This document shows positions 5,221 through 21,708 of a stretch of DNA of 24,000 bases, piece by piece. The notes beneath the pieces were generated by a model. The model made no database searches and was not told where the DNA came from. It saw only the letters and a list, made by a program, of their open reading frames with translations. This DNA comes from an uncultured Roseobacter sp. (GTDB lineage Bacteria; Pseudomonadota; Alphaproteobacteria; Rhodobacterales; Rhodobacteraceae): assembly GCF_947496515.1 (NCBI RefSeq), contig NZ_CANMDB010000012.1, positions 93,934-117,933 of the forward strand. The letters run 5' to 3'. Within the stretch, counting starts at the first letter, position 1. Each line of letters starts with the position of its first letter. The position numbers were made by a program, and so were the translations under genes.

Positions 5221-6123
5221 GCACCACCAAAGAGCATTGAGGCGAGCATGGGGGACCATGCCCAACCTGCTTGCCAAGTCTACGTTCACCCAAGCTGGCC
5301 GCGTGTCAGCGAACCCCTCGAAGGGGCAGATCTGCGCGTGCTGTCGCTTGGTGCAGGTGTCCAGAGCACCACACTCGCCCTAATGGCCGTGCATGGCGAA
5401 ATTGGCCCAATGCCAGATGTAGCAGTCTTTGCCGATACTGAATGGGAACCCGAACCGGTCTACGAGCACCTCAGATGGCTCATGAGTGGCAACATCCTGC
5501 CGTTTCCTGTGCACCGCGTCAGTGCTGTCAATCTGCGCCAGCAAGTGATCGACAGGGGAGGGGGCAGGGCGTTTCATTTCGCTCCCCTTCTTTCTCGACA
5601 GCGGGGGCATGGGTCGCAGACAGTGTACGCGGGAAGCGAAGATCGCACCTATCCGCGCAGAAGTTCAGCGCCTACTAGGGCTCGCTAAGGGCGAACGCAC
5701 GACCAGGTTTCGCATCGAGTAGTGAATCGGTATCTCCACGGACGAAATGGGACACATGAAGGATGCGCGCGAGGCCTGGGTGACACATCGCTGGTCACTT
5801 ATCGAGGCGCGTATGTCGCGTGGCGACTGCTACGCATGACTGCAACGCCACGGATACCCAACACCCCCCAAGTCTTCCTGCATCGGCTGTCCTTACCATA
5901 GCGATGCCTTCTGGCAGCGGATGCAGTGCGAAGATCCCGTGGCTTTCAGGGATGCCGTCGCAGTTGATGCAGCTCTTCGGCAAAACGGTCGGGCGCGGGG
6001 CATGCGGCCAGGAGAATACATGTACAGATCCTATCAGCCTTTGGGAGAGGTCGACTTCGAGGCGAGGGCAGGGGGGCGTAGATGCCATTTGCGGATGAGT
6101 GCGATGGTGTTTGTGGCACCTGA
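5212..6123 (+). pseudogene. PAPS reductase / PP-loop ATPase-like protein (plasmid and phage-associated family), decayed
   Basis: N-terminus LRVLSLGAGVQSTTLALMAVHGEIGPMPDVAVFADTEWEPEPVYEHLRWL (PP-loop SxGxxS). It continues in another frame as GRFISLPFFLDSGGMGRRQCTREAKIAPIRAEVQRLLG...IE**IGISTDEMGHMKDAR...RGDCYA*LQRHGYPTPPKSSCIGCPYHSDAFW. It ends in a third frame as DECDGVCGT*. Two frameshifts sit in G-runs (about 5555-5564 and 6071-6076). Three in-frame stops: TAG 5720, TGA 5723, TGA 5837. Confidence 0.75.
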
Positions 6124-6577: not shown

Positions 6578-7054
6578 CCCAGACCGTCCATCCAGCATGG
6601 AGCTGGCTATGCCTGCCATGCGGACTCTGCCGCCATTGCCGTACCAAAAACGGATGGCCGCTGTGCGCGCTTCGCCCGGGTAACGAAAAGCTGCAACGGC
6701 GGAAAGTAGGCGTTTGCGGCGGGTGGAACCGACCACTACGGAGGGCATAAGCAGATCCACTGAACGCTACATTGAACCGCCTATAAGGGCGACAGTCGTC
6801 CTTAGGAGAGACCATTTTCCAACCTCATGTGACCGGCCTGCGGCAGATCACGACAATCATCTGGTGCGAGGCGGACGACGAAGAACATTGTAAGGTGCGA
6901 GGCCATGACAGTGGAGCGCAAGAGCCTGCACCGTCGTCTTCCGTCCCCGGTCAAGAAGGTCAATCCGTTCCGCTATTGTTCTTCTCTTCTAGATGGGCGA
7001 CAATTTGCCTATTGGCCGACATTCGTACCATCGGTGATTTGCAATGGAGATTTC

Positions 7055-10000
7055 ATGGACGCGACCATCGTTCACCTGAGCGACCTACATTTCAAGAATG
7101 ATGCTGAGAACCGCCTCCGTCTGCGCTGCTTGCGGACCGATCTGAAGAAGTTGGAGGCGGAGGGAACGATATACACGGTTCTTACCGGTGATCTCGTGAA
7201 TGCAGGCGATGACAACACGTTCGACCTGCTACTCGACGAGCTAGTCGGACCTTTGCTCGAAATGGGGCACGAGGTCTTCGTCGTCCCCGGAAACCACGAT
7301 GTTCAGCGCGCTGTTGCCGATCGATCCTTCTGCGATCGCATCCTCGCCGATCGTGCGAGCGGCTATTTGTTCACGGGAGAGCCCATCCTCGGGACGATCA
7401 CCCCGATCCCGTGTTTGACGTGCTGGCGAACTACCGCGACTTCGAAGAACTGTTTGGTCCCTACGATCAGCAGAGCTATTGGGGGTACACTGCCACTAGG
7501 GGATCGGTATCTTTCGTCGGGCTTAACTCCGCTTGGTTATGCTGCGCGCGCCCCAAGGGCGAAACCGATCGTGGCGCTTTGCGTGTCGAACCCGCCGTCT
7601 TGGAGAAGCTCGTCCAGAACCTGCCGGACGACACGCTTCGCGTGGCGCTGCTTCACCATCCGTTGGACTGGTTGGAAGAGACCACCCGCAGCGCTGTCAG
7701 CGACCTGCTTATCAACAACGCCGACCTCGTTCTCTTCGGTCACGTTCATGCTAACGATGTCGTTGGACAGATCAAGGGGAACGCGAAAAGCGTATTCCTC
7801 CAAGCGCCACCTCTCCGCGCTGATTGGTCCAAGGGGACAAATGGGTACGCGATCGTGCGGACTGATACCGAACACAAGAAGTTCGAGGTTCAATACCGGT
7901 CATACTCGAAGTCTCAGCGCACCTTCGTTTCTGGCGAGGATTTTGCGCCCACTGGCCGCATGTATCCTCGCCCTGAGGACGCAGACTTCTTTCGGAACTC
8001 GCCCCCGCTTTCCGCCCTCCTTCGCCGGTTTGCCGAAACCGAGTCCGTCGACTACCTCGACTGGTATCGGACCCACATCCGCTCTAAGTCGAAGGTGACG
8101 GGGTCGTTCGTGATTCCCAAGGTTCATCACGTTACTGCATCGCAGGAAGGACCTTTTCTCGATCCGCCGCAGTCTTTGACCCACGTCGTCGCCCAATCGG
8201 CATGCGACCAGTTTTTCGTTGCGCCGCTTGACGCGGGCTCCACGACGGCCGCATACCTCACATTCAAGCATCTCTCCGAGACGTTCTCGGTTCATCGCCA
8301 GGTGCCGGCGTACTTCGACGCCGGTCGAGAATCTATCAACAAGGCATCGATCCTTCGCAAGATCAGCCAGACGACCCCCATCCGCTACTCCCACATGGAA
8401 GCTGAGCAGCTGGTCGATGAGGCTGCTGTTGTCGTGGTCGTCGATGGGCTGTGTCTAGGTGATGTCGAACAGTTCAACTTGTTCCGTGACACCGTCGACC
8501 GGCATTTACCGAACATCCGTTTTCTCTACTTCCTAAGCACGGAGCGGCGCGGCCTGTCGCCCACCGGCGTGGGCGAACCGCGCCTCTATTCCAGTGAAGA
8601 CGAGATATACGAGTTTGCCCAACTCGATGTTGACGGCATTCGATCCATGATTGCGATCCGGATTCCCGACAAGGCCGAGGCGGTGCGAGAGGGCGTCGTC
8701 AGCCACGTCGTCGAAAGCTTTCGACAGATGGACGAGCCGATCTTCGCAAGCACCGTCGCTGTGGTGATCGACACCATAACCCAAGATCCGGAATTCAAGC
8801 CACTTAACAAGGCCCGGCTGATCGAGCGATACGTCGAATGCCTCTTGGGACGGTTCGATCTGGAAGACGTGCGAGAGGGGGCGTTCTCGTCGAGCGACAA
8901 GATCAACTTCCTCGCATTCGTGGCGCGTCAGTTGCTGGAGGAGAACCGAGTGGGAATGGACGAGGGTCGATGGCATGGGCTGGTCTCGACTTATCAGGCC
9001 CGTTTCCTTATCGAGCTTCCCCGCCAGCTGCTGAAGGAATTTTTGGACAAAGGCCTTCTGACGATGGAAGGAGGCGAGATCACCTTCCGAGGTGACCATC
9101 TGTTCTCGTTCTTCGTGGCGCAAGAAATGAAGCGTGACGCCGATTTTGCTGCATCCCTTGTCGAGGGTCCGGGTCTGTTTCGGCATTACAGGGAGATCAC
9201 GGTCTACGGTGAACTGGAAGGCACAAATGTCGCCAAGGTGCTCAATGGTGTTTTCCAGGAACTCTGCGCCATAGAAGAGACCCTTCTTGAAAATTATTCG
9301 CGTATCGGCGTCGACCTGACGGCAGAATGGGTGGCCGCGTGCAACGAGGCTGAGGCTAAGGCCGTCTCGGAGTCCCTCGACGAAGCGGCCGCGGGTCTAG
9401 GCACGGCGGATGCCACCGCTGAAGGAGCCGATCGACACGACAACGCGGAGCTTGCGAAGATCGACCGTCGTCGTGGCGTCTCCGAGCGTCAGGAAGTTCG
9501 GGAATCGGAAGCCAGACTCTTGGTCGGCATGCGGCTCTACGGACTACTGCTGAAGAACGCGCTGCACCTCGAGGCTCCATACAAGTTGCGTCATTTAAAA
9601 AAGCTCTATGAAGCGGCGGAACTGTGGGTCGGATTCATGTGCGCCGGCCGCGAAGCCATCGGTCGTCATCCGATCGTCATCGCAGGCGGCGTGCGCTTCA
9701 TAAATCTCGGGGCCATGGTGGACAAGGAACGATCCTACAGAGACTTCAAGTTCAACGCACCGAACACGGTGTCCCGACTGATCGCCGGCACGATGCGTAA
9801 TCCTCAGCTTTCCATCGCGATCAGGAACCTGATTGGCGATCTTGATCCGATGAGTCAGTTGTTTGCCCGTGATGTGCTGCTGGAGATGCCGGGTGATCAG
9901 AACAGGGACGCGTATCTCGGGTCGCTCAAGAGCGAGGAGGACATCAACCTTGTCATCTGCGCATTGCGAACGCTACGAATCCGATACCTTTCCGCCGGAC

Positions 10001-10149
10001 GAAATCAGGATCGCAGGAACTATCTGGAGAGTATCGTGAATGCGATTGCTAAAGACCCGCGCGTCGCAAGACGCGTCGACTTCTCAAAGCTCCGAAAGGC
10101 TCGCCTTGTTCAGGACTTGCGCGGAAAGGCAGCTCAAGGTATCGAATAG
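7055..10149 (+). CDS. Calcineurin-like metallophosphoesterase fused to a NACHT/STAND-type NTPase and a helical C-terminal domain; reading frame broken once near 7401 (ORF pieces 7055..about 7405 and 7411..10149)
   Basis: ATG 7055 lies behind GGAGA. All metallophosphoesterase (MPE) motifs are present, and they span the frame break: VHLSDLHF, TGDLVNAGD, VPGNHD | LLHHPL, FGHVHAN. STAND features follow: Walker A-like APLDAGSTTAAY (8221-8256), Walker B VVVVVDGL, STERRG, and the winged-helix signature KGLLTMEGGEITFRGDHLFSFFVAQEM. After that come about 400 aa of helical sequence with no obvious repeats. Adding one C to the C4 run at 7401-7404 gives the continuous reading GEPILGTITPDPVFDVLANYRDF. Confidence 0.8.
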
Positions 10150-10531
10150 CTTCTTCTCAAATTCCGCGACTAGTCCGTTATACAAACGTCTGTCTTGGGG
10201 AAGCTGCGCAGCGGCGTTGGCCATTGTGACGAACGGCCTCTGTGGGTGGCTCCTGCATTGCAAGTGTTTTCTGGTGATATTCGCGGTCATTTTTGTCAGT
10301 ACTGTCGTCTGTCCGGCCTGTTTATGTTTTGGCATTGCCTCCACTGGCCCTCCTTCTCGGGACATTGCTCCGCAATGCCCTGCCAGGCGGTGGATGAATT
10401 CCGCGAGCGAGGTTCCAATCGGCTTATCGACCTCAGAGGGCCGCTGCCATTCCCGGAGTGTCCTTGCTCTTGGTTGACTTAGTTCCGCATCATCACTTCA
10501 ACGTCTTGCATCGCGTGGGCAGTTGGCGTGG

Positions 10532-11524
10532 TTAGAACGCTGGCTGCCGGTATTCTTGTTTCTTGGTCAGTATCGCCCAGATGGTCCGGGCTGCCTTGTT
10601 TGCCATGGCGACCGTTGCCAGCCGGAACGGTTTGTCGGCGATAATCTTAGCGGTCCAAAGATCAACCTTCTCCGGCGAACGTTTCGCCATCACTGCGCGA
10701 GACGTCATGCCCACGACCAACAGTTTACGAATGTAGCGATCACCCTGCTTCGTGATCTTGCCAAGACGTTCCTTGCCGCCACTGGACTTGTTGAGCGGGG
10801 TCAGGCCCAACCAGGCCACCAAATCGCGCCCGGTGCGGAACTGTTTTGCGTCCCCGATCGTGGCGACAATCGCTGAGGCCGTGATCGGCCCAATCCCCGG
10901 CATGCGCATCAGCCAGCGCACATCTGAGCTCAGCAGGACATGTTGTTCGATCATCTTCGAATAGCCGTCGATACGTTCGTTTAGCCCGATGAATTGGTAG
11001 CACTGTATGCCAAGCATGCCGGTTGCGATCTCGGGCATGTCCGGGTGATCGCCATCAAGGTGACGCTTTGCAAAAGCCGTCACCGCTTCGATCCCGATGG
11101 GCAAGATATGCCCAAACTCGCGCAACAGGCTGCGGATCATATTGGCCAACTGAGTGCGCTGCCGGACGGCCAGATCTCGCGTGCGGTGGATTGACAGAAT
11201 GGCCTGCTGATTTTCCGTTTTGATATCGACAAAACGCATGGTCGGACGGCGGACCGCCTCGCAAATCGCTTCTGCGTCGACAGCATCGTTCTTTCCGCGC
11301 TTCACATAGGCTTTGACATATCCGGCAGGCATGAGCTTCACATCATGCCCGAGCTTGCGTAGTTGACGGCCCCAATGATGGGATGAACCGCAGGCTTCCA
11401 TGCCAACCGTGCACGGTGGCAACGTCTCAAAAAACGCCAGCAGCTTCGCGCGTTTGATCGCCTTGTTGAAGATCACACGGCCATTCTCCGAAATGCCGTG
11501 TACTTGAAAAACATCCTTGGCCAT
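10532..11524 (-). CDS. IS110-family transposase (DEDD/RuvC-like), N-terminus disrupted
   Basis: MAKDVFQVHGISENGRVIF...VGMEACGSSHHWGRQLRKLGHDVKLMPAGYVKAYVKRGKNDAVDAEAICEAV...MPGIGPITASAIVATIGDAKQFRTGRDLVAWLGLTPLNKSSGGKERLGKITKQGDRYIRKLLV is classic IS110 family. The ancestral start MTVKTVGVDL (ATG 11591, SD GGAG) lies 40 nt further upstream and out of frame. Confidence 0.88.
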   Translation of the reverse strand: MAKDVFQVHGISENGRVIFNKAIKRAKLLAFFETLPPCTVGMEACGSSHHWGRQLRKLGHDVKLMPAGYVKAYVKRGKNDAVDAEAICEAVRRPTMRFVDIKTENQQAILSIHRTRDLAVRQRTQLANMIRSLLREFGHILPIGIEAVTAFAKRHLDGDHPDMPEIATGMLGIQCYQFIGLNERIDGYSKMIEQHVLLSSDVRWLMRMPGIGPITASAIVATIGDAKQFRTGRDLVAWLGLTPLNKSSGGKERLGKITKQGDRYIRKLLVVGMTSRAVMAKRSPEKVDLWTAKIIADKPFRLATVAMANKAARTIWAILTKKQEYRQPAF

Positions 11525-11591
11525 CCCTCTCATTGACTGCTGCGCAATCAACTGCCGGTCAAAGATCCACGCCTACGGTCTTTACTGTCAT

Positions 11592-11800
11592 TGGGTGGCT
11601 CCTTTCCTAGCAGTCGTTGATAACTGCACTTTGGCACATTCGATGCCGGTGGAGCAGGAGCCACCCACCTCATCCGGAATGGGCCGCCCTTACATGCGCC
11701 AGTGTCGGCAGTCGGCGCTTTGCGGCTACTCGTGCAAGGTGCAGCATTCGGAGCTGTGGGCTCTCTTGAGACCTTCGCCGCAGGGTGCGTCAAGAAACGC
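11592..11800 (-). ncRNA. Candidate IS110 bridge (seeker) RNA region in the 5' non-coding end
   Basis: A perfect 10-bp inverted repeat, GGGTGGCTCC (11593-11602) / GGAGCCACCC (11657-11666), lies immediately upstream of the ancestral transposase start. IS110-group elements are known to encode a structured guide RNA in this position. The extent is a guess. Confidence 0.25.
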
Positions 11801-12329: not shown

Positions 12330-12448
12330 GATGTTTGACTTTCAAAGTTGAGCCAGGCCTGACAGTGTTTCGGGTAACCGGTTCTTAGGTGTTACCTACA
12401 ATCGCCTCGAAAAGAGTTCCGGAAAGTTCGGTCTTTCGGCGGGGTGCC

Positions 12449-13255
12449 ATGAATTCTTTTGGAGCAAGATTCGGCGTTTTGGTAAAAGACCGAAGGGGAG
12501 TCGAAGGGCTCACACAACAAGCTCTTTCTGTTCTGGCGTTCGGCGAAGAAGCAAAAAAAGCGCGCATCTCCGAGCTGGAAAACGGACGGATTAAGAACCC
12601 ACAGCAGCGGGTGATTGACGCTCTATCTGTTGCTCTGAATTTGTCAGATGACGATATCGCTTCTTGTCGAAAGCCGAGGGTTCCGGAACTACCCAGTGGG
12701 TATCCCGCAGAAATCGGCATGACCGATGAATTGGTTGAAGCCCTGTCATGGCGTTTCGGTTTTGAAAACCCAAAGGCTTCTTCAGAACAATATCAGCAGT
12801 TCCTCAGCGACAAGTCTGAGGAGCTAACAAACCTTCGTTCTCGTATAGGTACGATTGGCAAAACGAGTAAGAGTATCGCCAAAATGATGGCAGCTGCGAA
12901 CCATGAAATCGAACAAGGTCATTTCGAAGCGGCCGACGATATTCTTCGCGACGCAGAGGAGCTTCAGCAAAAAGAACACACTTTGACCCAGGTGAGAAAG
13001 CAGGCGGAAATCCGTATAGTACGCGCAGAAGGCGCGCTACTTAAAGGTGACGATGGGCTCGCGTATTCTCACTACAAAGTCGCTGCAGAATTCTTCACTC
13101 CGTTTGATCCAATCGAAGGAGCACGCCATAGGCGTAGCCATTATACAGCATTGTACGATCACGCTATGCGGTTTGGCGGCTCAGGACTAATATATGCAAC
13201 TGAACTCGCAGAGATTAATGTATCTTTATACGCGGCCTTGGATCAAAAGCCCTAA
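12449..13255 (+). CDS. XRE-family helix-turn-helix protein with helical/TPR-like extension; N-terminal part of an HTH-TPR gene ended by in-frame TAA 13253
   Basis: ATG 12449. MNSFGARFGVLVKDRRGVEGLTQQALSVLAFGEEAKKARISELENGRIKNPQQRVIDALSVALNLSDDDI is an XRE/Cro-type HTH (LTQxxLS...IsxlEnGr...P). The remainder is helical. Confidence 0.75.
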   Translation: MNSFGARFGVLVKDRRGVEGLTQQALSVLAFGEEAKKARISELENGRIKNPQQRVIDALSVALNLSDDDIASCRKPRVPELPSGYPAEIGMTDELVEALSWRFGFENPKASSEQYQQFLSDKSEELTNLRSRIGTIGKTSKSIAKMMAAANHEIEQGHFEAADDILRDAEELQQKEHTLTQVRKQAEIRIVRAEGALLKGDDGLAYSHYKVAAEFFTPFDPIEGARHRRSHYTALYDHAMRFGGSGLIYATELAEINVSLYAALDQKP

Positions 13256-13327
13256 CATGGCCGCGCGCTGAGCAATGTTGCTGTTTTTAAACAGCAGCGA
13301 GCACAAAGAGCTTCAGATGAGCGCAGC

Positions 13328-14062
13328 ATGGAGCTTTTCGTTGAGACGATTGCCGCTCACCGCGAAGCACTCGAACAATTGTCTAGTAAATCCCAAGTAA
13401 TTGAATGGGCTCAGGAGCAGGACAATCTCGGCATCACGTTGGTTAATCAGTCGTATCGGGTCTCTGCGGATCAGCGTCCTGAACTCGTTTCAAAGGCTGT
13501 TGCAGCTCACAAAGCGGCGATCTCGGTTCTATCGAGTGAAACTCATCCACTTGAATGGGCGAAGACACAAAACAACCTGGGTTCAAGCTTGCAAGCAAAA
13601 GCAGGTCTGGAGGAAGCGGTCGATTGCTCCAGATCCCTTGACCTTGCGATAAAAGCCCACAAAGCGGCCCTCAGTATTTTAGATTCCGGTTCTTCTTCAG
13701 ATGATCGGGTGCGCACGCTGAACAACCTTGCGACTGCTTTACTTCACCTTGGATCAATCACACATGGCCAGAAGGGACTTGAGTTACTGAATGAGGCAGT
13801 CAGGAGTTTTGAAGCTCTCTTGGATATCTGTACGCGCGAAACTCACCCCTTGGTTTGGGCTGTCGTTCAAGAGAACATTGCTCAGACTACTGAGGCGATA
13901 GTTGAGCGAGGAAACGCCGATTATCGTAGAAGCGGGTTACAGAGAGTCCTCGAATTATTGGACAATGCAATAACAATCTACGCAGAAGTCTCTGATGAAC
14001 ACCGTTTGAAGGAATGTTCCGAGCACCGGACGCTCGTGACGCAAAAGCTTGATAATGCTTAG
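13328..14062 (+). CDS. Tetratricopeptide-repeat (TPR_10/12-like) protein; same frame as 12449..13255 and open from 13256
   Basis: Repeats of about 42-44 aa: AHREALEQLS..VIEWAQEQDNLGITL, AHKAAISVLSSETHPLEWAKTQNNLGSSL, AHKAALSIL...RVRTLNNLATAL, SFEALLDICTRETHPLVWAVVQENIAQT. The codons between the TAA and ATG 13328 read HGRALSNVAVFKQQRAQRASDERS, which continues the repeat pattern. Confidence 0.75.
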   Translation: MELFVETIAAHREALEQLSSKSQVIEWAQEQDNLGITLVNQSYRVSADQRPELVSKAVAAHKAAISVLSSETHPLEWAKTQNNLGSSLQAKAGLEEAVDCSRSLDLAIKAHKAALSILDSGSSSDDRVRTLNNLATALLHLGSITHGQKGLELLNEAVRSFEALLDICTRETHPLVWAVVQENIAQTTEAIVERGNADYRRSGLQRVLELLDNAITIYAEVSDEHRLKECSEHRTLVTQKLDNA

Positions 14063-17949: not shown

Positions 17950-18198
17950 ATGAAACACCTTACAAGCCGAGAGTTTAACCAAAACGTCAGCAAGGCAAAG
18001 AGAGATGCCTTGTCCGGTCCTGTTTTTGTGACGGATAGGGGCCAGCCTTCGCATGTATTGCTTAGCTATGACGAGTACAGGCGGCTGACATCTGAGCCGA
18101 CCAACATTGTCGAAGCTCTGTCAATGAAGGGACTGTCCTCGGTCGACTTTGAGACGGAGAAGGTGTCGCCTTCCATCAAACCAGTTGATCTTTCGTGA
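17950..18198 (+). CDS. Type II antitoxin, Phd/YefM family
   Basis: MKHLTSREFNQNVSKAKRDALSGPVFVTDRGQPSHVLLSYDEYRRLT matches the Phd/YefM N-terminal pattern. The stop overlaps the toxin GTG start (GTGA). Confidence 0.85.
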   Translation: MKHLTSREFNQNVSKAKRDALSGPVFVTDRGQPSHVLLSYDEYRRLTSEPTNIVEALSMKGLSSVDFETEKVSPSIKPVDLS

Positions 18199-18635
18199 TC
18201 TACCTTCTGGACACAAATGTCGTTTCAGAGCTTCGCAAGGCAGGGGATGGAAAAGCGGATGCCAATGTTGCGGAGTGGGCCTCCCTGCGAGACCCCGAAG
18301 AGCTATACATATCTGTAATTACTCTTCTGGAACTAGAAGTGGGTGTTCTCAGGATTGAGCGAAGAGACGACAAGCAAGGTCAGATGCTTCGCATTTGGCT
18401 TGAACACCATGTCATCCCCTTCTTCCAAGATCGTATTCTGCCGGTAGACGAGCATGTCGCGATTGGTTGTGCGAGGCTGCATGTTCCGAACAAGAGCCCT
18501 GAGCGTGATGCGCTGATCGCCGCAACGGCAAACGAACTCAATATGACCATCGCCACGCGTGATGAAAAAGACTTTCGAGATCTGGCTAGGAAAACCTTCA
18601 ACCCCTGGAGTTCAATGAAAGGTACCCGCGGATGA
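18195..18635 (+). CDS. vapC: Type II toxin, VapC (PIN-domain ribonuclease)
   Basis: MIYLLDTNVVSEL...YISVITLLELEVG...ERDALIAATANELNMTIATRDEKDF...NPW carries the PIN acidic residues in their canonical positions. Confidence 0.9.
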   Translation: MIYLLDTNVVSELRKAGDGKADANVAEWASLRDPEELYISVITLLELEVGVLRIERRDDKQGQMLRIWLEHHVIPFFQDRILPVDEHVAIGCARLHVPNKSPERDALIAATANELNMTIATRDEKDFRDLARKTFNPWSSMKGTRG

Positions 18636-20087: not shown

Positions 20088-20778
20088 AGCCAGCACATGA
20101 CTTCATCGAGCTCTGCGAGGGTCTTGTGCTGAGGTGCTACCGATCGGGATCGTAAACGCCATTTCCAGTTTATGAAGTCATTCATGACGGCCGAACTCTT
20201 ATAGCTGTCCGCACCGAATAGATGGCCCTCTCGATTGATGCTGCGGGCTCACCAGCTCGGCTTCGCGTGTCGCTGGTGAGTATTGGCCCGTGGCCAATCG
20301 CACAGTCGGGCATGCGCCCTCCGTGCAGATGTTGGCGCTGGATGTCCCGGTCCGCCCGCCTCGCGAGCGCAGCCCACCTCGGCCGCTCCGCCGGATTGCG
20401 CTCTGGTCTGTTTTGCCAGGGCAAAACGATCCCGCCACTCCATCCGTCTCCCGCGTCCGGTCAGGCTGCTTGCCTGCTCAGGTCGGGCTGACCTCGCGAA
20501 ACCACACACACACATGACTGTGGAAGCATATCCTCCGGATGGCCACCGAAGCAGCCCGCGTCAAGGATCGCTAGAATTTTCGGAGAGGACCTTCTTAATC
20601 GTCAGAGGACCCGCGCGCTTGAGAGGGCAGGGACATGCGAAGCCGCCTACCATGAAAATTCGAGCGCCCAGCAAGCTGGCGGCTTCGCCGTCCCTGACCC
20701 GAACAGCTTCGGAAACCAGACATTCGGCCATGCAGCCACACTCACGTGGTGCAGATCAGAAACTCTGGAGAACACATC

Positions 20779-21708
20779 ATGCCATACGATCAAGCAACCA
20801 CATACGAGACCATCGAACTCTTCGGCCTCACCGAGAAGGACGCAGCTATGCCGATCCCGACCGACGAGATGCTGAAGGACGCCATCATCCGGGAAACCTT
20901 CGAGACGCTGCTCGGGCAGCTGCGTGCCACCGGGCTTGAGGCAGAAATCGAGCCGCTTGCCCACGGGTTGGCGACGATCCTGCAGCGGCGCAAGATCGCC
21001 CTCACCAAGGAGATCGACCGGACCACCGACAAGATCCGGGCACTGGCGAAGAGCCACGACGGATCGGAGATCGCCGAGACCGCCATGGAGGAAGCACAAG
21101 CCCGCTTCCTGCAACTCCGCGACATCACCGGCGCCATTGAGACGATGAGCGAAGCGGCTGCCGAGTGCTACGAAACCGAGACCGGCCACGCCTTCATCCC
21201 TGCAGCCGGCTCTCGCGCCAGCGCACGTGCGCAGGAGACAGGCGCCATCTTCGAAGCGCGCCAGCTCCTCGAGCAGCATGACCGAGAGACCGCCGAGAAG
21301 TCGAAGGTCGAGGGCGTCCCCCTGATCGTCTCCGGCGCCACCGACTGGACTGACGTCGACGCGATCTTCTCGACGCTCGACAAAGTCCGGGCGCGCATCC
21401 GGCAGAACCGCAATCAGGAGATCTTCGTCTGCCACAAAGGCGGCAAGCACGGTGCCGAGATGATCGCTGCCCGTTGGGCGCGCGCTCGTGGGATCCCGCA
21501 AGCCCGATTCGATCCACGTTGGTCCGCCCATGGCCGCTCGGCACCCTTCAAGTGCAACGATGAGATGCTCGACGACAAGTTCGCTGCAGCCGGGGTCGTT
21601 CTCTTTGGCGGCAACGGTGTCGCGCTCAATCTCGGGCAAAAGGCTGAGGCGAAAGGGATCACCGTCATGCGGGTCGCAGATCCGGCGAGGGCGCGCGACG
21701 GGAAGTGA
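20779..21708 (+). CDS. DUF2493 (SLOG-superfamily) domain protein with an N-terminal helical extension of about 190 aa
   Basis: ATG 20779 lies behind GGAGA. The C-terminus PLIVSGATDWTDVDAIFSTLDKV...IFVCHKGGKHGAEMIAARWARARGIPQARFDPRWSAHGRSAPFKCNDEMLDD...GVVLFGGNGVALNLGQKAEAKGITVMRV matches the DUF2493 pattern (GsRdw.d...vhGg..GaD.iAa.WA...gv....f.adW...G..Ag..RN..Ml). Confidence 0.8.
   Translation: MPYDQATTYETIELFGLTEKDAAMPIPTDEMLKDAIIRETFETLLGQLRATGLEAEIEPLAHGLATILQRRKIALTKEIDRTTDKIRALAKSHDGSEIAETAMEEAQARFLQLRDITGAIETMSEAAAECYETETGHAFIPAAGSRASARAQETGAIFEARQLLEQHDRETAEKSKVEGVPLIVSGATDWTDVDAIFSTLDKVRARIRQNRNQEIFVCHKGGKHGAEMIAARWARARGIPQARFDPRWSAHGRSAPFKCNDEMLDDKFAAAGVVLFGGNGVALNLGQKAEAKGITVMRVADPARARDGK

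Follow-up and report, generated by a model that had tools for sequence, protein, structure and literature searches.

Introduction

Two named groups of proteins lie closest to the gene discussed in this article, and for one of them protection against phage has been measured. DS-8, reported with DefensePredictor (Science 2026; PMC13092281), is a single Escherichia coli protein of 1014 aa (WP_032203427.1) that joins a metallophosphatase domain to a NACHT domain and protects E. coli against phage, and each of the substitutions D52A, N84A and K375A abolishes this defence, K375 being described as critical to the ATPase activity of the NACHT domain (PMC13092281). Its authors relate the phosphatase domain to SMPDL3A, a phosphodiesterase of cyclic GMP-AMP (cGAMP) (PMC13092281). 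The second group, PDC-S60, is a PADLOC candidate only; literature searches returned nothing on 'PDC-S60' and nothing on a bNACHT protein with a metallophosphoesterase (MPE), and a 2020 eLife paper on conflict systems mentions calcineurin phosphoesterase effectors and does not name nSTAND4. An effector of the calcineurin kind is also found in the two-gene PUA-Cal-HAD system, where Calcineurin-CE converts deoxynucleoside diphosphates (dNDP) to monophosphates (dNMP) and cleaves NAD+ (bioRxiv 10.64898/2026.01.15.699771). Here, I will discuss a gene at positions 7055-10149 (+) of a 24,000-nucleotide stretch of DNA from an uncultured Roseobacter sp. (assembly GCF_947496515.1, contig NZ_CANMDB010000012.1, positions 93,934 to 117,933; the whole of this stretch is called the window below). 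With a probability that I put at roughly 0.6, it is a copy of a standalone mobile gene for a protein resembling the nucleotide-binding, leucine-rich-repeat receptors (NLRs), that is, a signal transduction ATPase with numerous domains (STAND), belonging to the PDC-S60/DS-8 superfamily of single-protein anti-phage systems and acting through the MPE-effector mechanism proposed below.

The original prediction for this gene, made from the letters of the DNA, was of a single-gene MPE-STAND conflict system, an interpretation that is supported in substance. Its remark that no member with an MPE effector had been characterised is outdated, DS-8 having been validated (PMC13092281) and PADLOC already holding PDC-S60, and the architecture thereby falls, at the level of the superfamily, largely within a named and characterised kind. 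What is known, then, is the PDC-S60/DS-8 type of MPE-NACHT protein; what is new is a clade within it whose P-loop has no lysine.

A divergent branch of the PDC-S60/DS-8 superfamily

The window protein (1031 aa once its reading frame is repaired, as described below) matches the NCBIfam model DS8_antiphage (NF053861) with an E-value of 9e-40 and 136.2 bits against a curated cut-off of 790 bits, residues 7-464 aligning to positions 1-450 of the 994 in the model, and two distant homologues, P0116 and P0119, pass that cut-off with 881 and 803 bits. When the clade to which the window protein belongs was aligned by hhalign to DS-8 members, the match (99.8%, E 2.6e-30) covered 653 columns and residues 4-696. 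PADLOC, to which the repaired protein was to be submitted, answered with PDC-S60 (PDLC05051/PDLC05050; E 1e-46, 157.6 bits), the match being partial and made of two stretches, the best of them on positions 3-304 of a model of 1027; hhalign against PDC-S60-type proteins, by comparison, ran through 894 columns and residues 2-948 (100%, E 2.8e-71). A full-length PDC-S60 member, P0090, scores 964 bits, and the DS-8 members also match the second PDC-S60 model. An exhaustive search gave the superfamily a size of 1,847 representatives of 50%-identity clusters at E <= 1e-30, and among the best 150 of these representatives most are full-length matches of ~1030-1080 aa and a few are fragments. A separate homology search had yielded ~70 full-length homologues. 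By these profile comparisons, the window protein is a divergent branch of the PDC-S60/DS-8 superfamily that lies outside the DS-8 equivalog family itself.

With DS-8 the window clade shares the standalone gene, the single polypeptide of ~1000 aa, the N-terminal MPE with the same catalytic residues and the NACHT-like STAND core with its winged helix. It differs from DS-8 in having Ser or Leu at the position aligned to the GK[ST] lysine and in a Walker B of DG[LI]x[LF] where DS-8 has D[DN]F[DN], and the C-terminal ~335 aa of the window protein cannot be aligned to DS-8 by sequence; moreover, phage protection was measured for DS-8, whereas the window clade is known from sequence alone. With PDC-S60 the homology is nearly full-length, with the same length and domain order and a C-terminal region that is homologous up to residue 948, yet the sister group to which PDC-S60 belongs has retained the canonical GxxExGK[ST]T and DD/DN, which are absent from the window clade.

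Three domains in one polypeptide

The protein consists of a complete MPE, a NACHT-like STAND core with a winged helix and a non-repetitive helical C-terminal domain, which is the three-part architecture that had been proposed, and it is borne out by the Pfam Metallophos match, by the AlphaFold model, by Foldseek and by the finding of no repeat fold in the C-terminal domain. The MPE is encoded, on the + strand like everything that follows in this paragraph, by 7055-7377 (residues 1-108, frame 2), with motifs I (DxH), II (GDxxD) and III (GNHD), and by 7378-7953 (residues 109-300), with motifs IV (HH) and V (GHxH). A helical bridge at 7954-8118 (residues 301-355, from the secondary structure of the model) connects it to a STAND nucleotide-binding-domain fold at 8119-8658 (residues 356-535, from the model and hhalign), and there follow a helical domain and winged helix at 8659-9138 (residues 536-695), with the signature GLLTMEGGEITFRGDHLFSFFVAQE at 9052-9126, and the all-helical C-terminal domain of ~335 aa at 9139-10146 (residues 696-1031), which contains a disordered acidic, Ala-rich linker at 9346-9477. 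All of the motifs originally listed lie at the coordinates given for them, namely VHLSDLHF at 7070-7093, GDLVNAGD at 7187-7210, GNHD at 7289-7300, LLHHP at 7648-7662 and GHVH at 7738-7749 in the MPE, and APLDAGSTT at 8221-8247, VVVVVDG at 8428-8448 and STERRG at 8536-8553 in the STAND core.

Pfam Metallophos (PF00149) matches residues 4-233 with 56.4 bits against a gathering threshold of 21.5, the five metal-ligand motifs are invariant in an alignment of 50 sequences, save for one sequence that is gapped at motif I, and the metal ligands are conserved across the superfamily. The other half of the suggested profile check fared less well, as neither NACHT nor NB-ARC nor AAA_16 matched the window protein at E <= 1, and the sole STAND-type Pfam match, to nSTAND_NTPase4, is confined to residues 655-688 in the winged helix and stays below its 27-bit cut-off at 18.3 bits; many homologues, on the other hand, bear this domain (PF24406) in their precomputed annotation, and F678, R679 and D681 of the winged helix are invariant among homologues. 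It is the structural model, built by AlphaFold on the closest homologue (P0001) with a 51-sequence alignment (mean predicted local distance difference score, pLDDT, 87; predicted template-modelling score, pTM, 0.76), that shows the central domain to have a predicted NACHT/STAND fold with a winged helix, including a strand at 386-390, a loop, a helix at 396-409 and a strand at 459-467 that bears Walker B. Compared with the PDB by Foldseek, the model returned a group of MPEs (Rv0805, with a template-modelling score, TM, of 0.74, GpdQ and Mre11) and a group of NACHT proteins (NOD2, NLRP3, NAIP5, NLRC4, NLRP9 and the bacterial Avs3), with E-values from 1e-5 to 3e-7 for NOD2, NLRP3, NAIP5, NLRC4 and Avs3. 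A search of the PDB by sequence gave Lmo2642 as the best match to the MPE, together with SbcD (E 3e-5) and Rv0805, and no relative among solved structures beyond such generic MPEs. Given the Pfam score, the full-length homologues, the confidence of the model and the Foldseek matches, the gene and its architecture are far beyond chance.

The order of effector, STAND switch and C-terminal domain, and the NACHT fold found by Foldseek, liken the protein to Avs, bNACHT and eukaryotic NLR proteins, as does the winged-helix signature, which aligns to a motif of the F-x-H...EF/Y-h-A-A type. It differs from them in its MPE effector and in the absence of the P-loop lysine, it matches no PADLOC model of Avs or bNACHT, and its C-terminal domain is not made of TPR, LRR or WD40 repeats, the sensor of Avs proteins being a TPR-like C-terminal domain to which phage terminase or portal binds. 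When the C-terminal domain was modelled alone, the recommended Foldseek comparison found no significant fold match in the PDB (best E 0.076, TM ~0.2), and by analogy with those proteins it is presumed to be a sensor or oligomerisation domain.

A P-loop without its lysine

The P-loop of the window protein reads APLDAGSTT and departs from the Walker A pattern GxxxxGK[ST], and hhalign aligns its residue 396, Ser or Leu in the clade, with the lysine of GK[ST] in PDC-S60 and DS-8. Among the 50 aligned members of the clade, this position is Leu in 30, Ser in 17, Val in two and Ala in one, and lysine in none (0/50), while D393, G395, T398 and the Walker B aspartate D464 are invariant. In relatives an acidic residue comes after that aspartate (DD, DN, DxxD/E); the clade has Gly at +1 and Asn, Cys or Ser at +3. 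Comparison of 230 superfamily members defines the clade by a P-loop of [AG]PxD[SA]G[LSV][ST]T and a Walker B of DG[LI]x[LF], and within the same set a large sister group retains GxxExGK[ST]T and DD/DN. The motif that had been called Walker A-like is not functional-looking, its lysine having been replaced throughout the clade. Judging by where GK[ST] lies in members of the DS-8 family, with K388 in the 1044-aa P0116 as an example, the K375 of DS-8 is taken to be the Walker A lysine.

The sister group itself includes several lineages that have, independently, R, A, Q or S at the position of the Walker A lysine (GRTT, GSTT, GAT, GQT; P0072, P0085, P0132, P0135, P0139, P0193, P0210, P0214, P0234 and P0245), and judging from these motifs, the loss or replacement of this lysine may be recurrent in the superfamily. 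D393 was considered as a novelty of the clade and rejected, since the equivalent P-loop position in the sister group is a conserved Glu (GxxExGK).

Between the repaired window gene and its closest relative (L004), the ratio of nonsynonymous to synonymous substitution rates (dN/dS) is 0.14 overall, with 0.154 for the MPE, 0.148 for the NTPase and winged-helix part and 0.136 for the C-terminal domain, and there is no acceleration in the window lineage; all three domains are thus under purifying selection and, with ratios this similar, the degenerate NTPase domain is as well conserved as the other two. Since neither the Walker A lysine nor a second acidic residue in Walker B is present, hydrolysis of nucleoside triphosphates (NTPs) is unlikely, and going by these motifs the switch of the clade very probably works without it. 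Instead, a nucleotide may be held statically in the switch, a ligand of another kind may be bound there, or the binding of a trigger may alone drive it.

How the protein might act

In the mechanism that I propose, the C-terminal domain and the STAND core would jointly sense an infection cue, leading to a conformational change or to oligomerisation, as in NLR and Avs proteins, by which the MPE domains would be brought together or released. The MPE would then hydrolyse pyrophosphate or phosphodiester linkages of nucleotides, with depletion of the nucleotide pool (NAD+ or (d)NDP/(d)NTP) favoured after the precedent of Calcineurin-CE and cleavage of DNA or RNA as the second choice, and the resulting abortive infection would halt the replication of the phage. 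A nucleotide pyrophosphate or diester is the favoured substrate because the best matches of the MPE in structure and in sequence are small-molecule diesterases, because the authors of DS-8 relate its MPE to SMPDL3A and because Calcineurin-CE, a related defence MPE, acts on dNDP and NAD+. Calcineurin-CE (PUA-Cal-HAD, DS-9A) is similar in using a calcineurin-like MPE as the effector of a defence system, and it offers a precedent for nucleotide-pool depletion and also for activation by assembly; it differs in that its sensor is PUA-like rather than STAND and that it is one of two genes, with a HAD partner. The direct match between the two is short, the window MPE meeting the model DS9_1_antiphage (E 9e-8) in only the N-terminal ~90 residues of the domain.

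A protein of the same architecture and role could also carry an MPE of the SbcD/Mre11 type, a nuclease that would degrade phage and host DNA upon activation. SbcD is among the PDB sequence matches (E 3e-5) and Mre11 among those of Foldseek, residues 5-287 are matched by PDLC00736, an 'Effector / Endonuclease' model of PADLOC (E 3e-18), and nucleases are the commonest effectors of STAND and Avs proteins. Rv0805 (TM 0.74) and GpdQ in structure and Lmo2642 in sequence are nevertheless better matches, and all are small-molecule diesterases; nothing like the capping or DNA-binding domains of Mre11 is evident in the model; and the likeness of the DS-8 domain to the cGAMP phosphodiesterase SMPDL3A and the action of Calcineurin-CE on dNDP and NAD+ point the same way, which leaves a nuclease as a doubtful effector, though one to be reckoned with. 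All of these enzymes, Rv0805, GpdQ, Lmo2642 and SbcD/Mre11 alike, have the MPE fold and the five metal-binding motifs in common with the window protein, and all differ from it as stand-alone housekeeping enzymes with no STAND fusion and an identity of only 13-18%.

A mobile gene with few copies

Only 20 loci of the clade were found in ~185,000 species genomes, and their hosts are almost all Rhodobacterales, with the addition of a single metagenome-assembled genome (MAG) each from Sphingopyxis and the Rhizobiaceae and of an Aquamicrobium plasmid. No homologue was found in phage genomes, and the plasmid database gave one full-length match only, on a 1.74-Mb replicon of Paracoccus versutus. As expected of the single-polypeptide unit that had been predicted, no neighbour gene is conserved: an all-against-all BLASTP of the neighbours at 24 loci revealed no conserved partner, and only a resolvase recurs, at 3 loci. 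In two Rhodobacteraceae/Roseovarius loci (L014 and L015, 7974-11142), DNA identity reaches 93% over the gene only, between flanks that are unrelated, and because the identity is confined to the gene, the gene is transferred as a single-gene cassette.

The surroundings of the homologues fit this picture. The annotated neighbourhoods include a plasmid with repABC and a type IV secretion system that carries a resolvase, Phd/PIN and an integrase, as well as integrase islets, an element with TraG and a relaxase, and a type I restriction-modification (R-M) system with Abi_C directly adjacent; a census of 133 neighbouring open reading frames (ORFs) at 18 loci yielded mostly integrases, transposases and resolvases, and also Tmn, a short prokaryotic Argonaute (pAgo) with SIR2-APAZ, a type IIG R-M system, DISARM-like proteins and CapP. 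The setting in a mobile-element and defence island that had been claimed is thus upheld, by the IS110 element, the H-NS gene and the Phd/PIN pair within the window and by the integrases, transposases, pAgo-SIR2, Tmn and R-M systems around the homologues, and the gene is standalone and horizontally mobile, with homologues in contexts of this kind. Two further observations concern single loci. In Paracoccus versutus, a YobI-like P-loop NTPase of 1201 aa (L006, 2959-6561, -), which PADLOC matches to Tmn (E 3e-75), is encoded ~1.4 kb upstream of the MPE-STAND gene; and a Silicimonas MAG, a Sphingopyxis MAG and a Logan contig (L016, L019 and L026) agree at 99.93% identity over their whole 19-kb loci, in which the MPE-STAND gene is accompanied by a TraG-like protein, a relaxase, an integrase and a serine recombinase, so that either a mobile element was shared very recently or the binning produced an artefact.

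It could also be that the lysine-less clade is not anti-phage at all, its members being degenerate or repurposed, for instance for addiction to a plasmid or an integrative and conjugative element, for competition between elements or as a regulated phosphodiesterase in nucleotide signalling, with the STAND core as a scaffold only. The Walker A lysine and the second acidic residue of Walker B are lost in 50 of 50 members, and the equivalent K375A abolishes defence by DS-8; several homologues are carried by plasmids or conjugative elements, with resolvases and toxin-antitoxin pairs next to them; and the closest MPE structures include the cyclic-nucleotide phosphodiesterases Rv0805 and Lmo2642. 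A mere scaffold is hard to square, however, with purifying selection on the NTPase-like domain (0.148) that equals that on the other domains, nor does a role outside defence agree well with the near-full-length homology to PDC-S60, with the defence genes of the neighbourhoods (the type I R-M system with its adjacent Abi_C, pAgo-SIR2 and Tmn) or with the rare, patchy distribution and single-gene cassette mobility that are typical of defence genes, and I regard it as quite unlikely.

For the anti-phage reading with which this article opened, several points weigh in the other direction. The window protein falls short of the DS-8 cut-off (136 against 790 bits) and matches the PDC-S60 model only in part; DS-8 needs K375, such that a lysine-less clade might work differently or not in defence; the defence role of the window clade, itself known from sequence only, would follow from homology to DS-8 and from context; to call the C-terminal domain a sensor is analogy only, as no solved fold resembles it; one of the six annotated neighbourhoods (P0037) has no mobile or defence markers; and the copy in the window is broken and may do nothing, whatever the family does.

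One missing base

As the sequence reads, a full-length protein cannot be made from the window copy, which is divided between two overlapping ORFs in different frames, 6905-8098 (frame 2) and 7411-10149 (frame 1). Once one base is restored, 7055-10149 (+) becomes a gene of 1031 codons whose protein of 1031 aa has zero internal stops, and the unit of about 1030 codons that was originally predicted therefore holds in its length and fails in being a single frame. The gene starts with the ATG at 7055, where homologues begin with the same MDATIVHLSD, preceded at a distance of 5 nt by a Shine-Dalgarno-like GGAG read from the sequence at 7046-7049 (+), and the stop codon is the TAG at 10147-10149 (+); consensus scans for a promoter and a terminator found nothing and were uninformative. 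From this ATG, frame 2 reads MDATIVHLSDLHF... and supplies residues 1-108 with MPE motifs I-III, as far as 7377/7378 (+), where one base is absent after ACGGG and where an intact relative reads ACGGGCCGAGCC; frame 1 then supplies residues 109 onward, with motifs IV-V and all the downstream parts. That exactly one base is missing is seen both in the DNA alignment with an intact locus of 89% identity (L004, encoding P0001, which shares 91% aa identity with the window protein and has the equal length of 1031) and in the protein alignment with full-length homologues. The suggested survey of intact and frameshifted alleles could be carried through, and at 21 of the 23 loci compared the gene is one uninterrupted ORF of ~1030 aa, the other 2 being cut by contig ends. 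For the annotation this means that the 912-aa "hypothetical protein" of the deposit (P0002) is only part of a larger split gene, namely its 3' part, which lacks MPE motifs I-III.

The window copy is either a very recently inactivated pseudogene or the product of an indel error in the assembly, as a single lesion and the lack of relaxed constraint in the window lineage imply. That the organism's gene is intact and functional, and the frameshift an assembly or sequencing error at a short G run, is favoured by there being one lesion in 3.1 kb and no internal stop after repair, by the dN/dS of 0.14 in a lineage that is not accelerated, by the GGG that the lesion adjoins, by the source, an assembly of an uncultured Roseobacter, and by the adjacent upstream gene at 5314-5935 that is likewise split by a single frameshift at a run of five Gs, the usual signature of homopolymer miscalls. 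Against this, the other long genes of the window are uninterrupted (an RTX protein of 795 aa, the IS110 transposase, the PIN toxin and a membrane-protein-like ORF of 437 aa), genuine frameshift mutations also favour homopolymer runs, and inactivation is common among the defence genes of mobile islands, and I see the odds between an error and a real mutation as even. The neighbouring gene belongs to an uncharacterised family with 521 homologues, the motif 'SLGAGVQSTTLALM' and no Pfam domain; it changes frame once, from 1 to 2, where five Gs stand at 5560-5564, and both frameshifts of the window are thus at G runs.

Programmed ribosomal frameshifting might, in principle, also join two such overlapping ORFs in vivo. 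This was rejected, and has next to no chance of being correct, as there is no slippery heptamer at CACGGGAGAG, every complete homologue locus is a single ORF and the closest relative has one extra base at the site.

Surroundings of the gene in the window

An IS110-family element occupies 10242-11668 (-), beginning 93 nt past the stop codon, bounded by a perfect 15-nt inverted repeat (10242-10256 and 11654-11668) and encoding a transposase at 10532-11551 (Pfam DEDD_Tnp_IS110 and Transposase_20). In Actibacterium (L009, 5387-5734), a truncated remnant of an IS110 transposase, 78% identical over residues 222-337, is found in the same place, and pointing the same way, downstream of a copy of the gene with only 54% identity, and another locus (L015, 12219-13232) has an IS110-family ORF of 31% identity 1.1 kb downstream of the gene. 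This site may be a recurrent target of IS110 elements, or such elements may be carried along with the gene.

Farther along, at 17950-18635, an ORF for a Phd/YefM-like antitoxin of 82 aa overlaps that of a PIN-domain toxin by 4 nt. A Phd/PIN pair also stands immediately upstream of the MPE-STAND gene on the Aquamicrobium plasmid (L001), with no detectable BLASTP similarity to the window pair at E <= 1e-6. The window further holds the H-NS gene; at 12389-14062, where GC content (~50%) is below that of the surroundings, an HTH_31 (XRE-type) protein of 288 aa followed by a helical, TPR-like ORF of 244 aa without a Pfam match; at 20746-21708 (+), in the most GC-rich part (~63%) and facing long spurious ORFs on the opposite strand, a YAcAr (YspA/cpYpsA-related SLOG) ORF; and at 13-2400 the C-terminal part of an RTX/haemolysin-type calcium-binding protein with long, near-identical internal repeats of ~150 aa.

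Discussion

Some plant NLRs act independently of their P-loop, and with such a precedent it is plausible that a receptor of this kind functions without the lysine. One may then ask, tentatively and in the expectation that the answer could well turn out otherwise, whether the Rhodobacterales-centred clade is an NLR-like immune receptor that works without the Walker A lysine, its STAND switch no longer hydrolysing NTP, and perhaps not binding it in the canonical way either, while being kept under strong selection. Activation could in that event be purely trigger-driven, or the remodelled pocket, with its invariant D393, G395, T398, D464 and winged-helix R679, could now serve to detect some other small molecule.

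The clade extends the little-studied class of MPE ("calcineurin-like") effectors into marine Alphaproteobacteria. It also touches on a wider matter, since STAND and NLR receptors, from bacteria to humans, are thought to be switched on and off by the binding and exchange of nucleotides, and a clade with dozens of sequence clusters, lysine-less and under purifying selection, amounts to a natural experiment in whether NLR-like signalling can do without a nucleotide switch.

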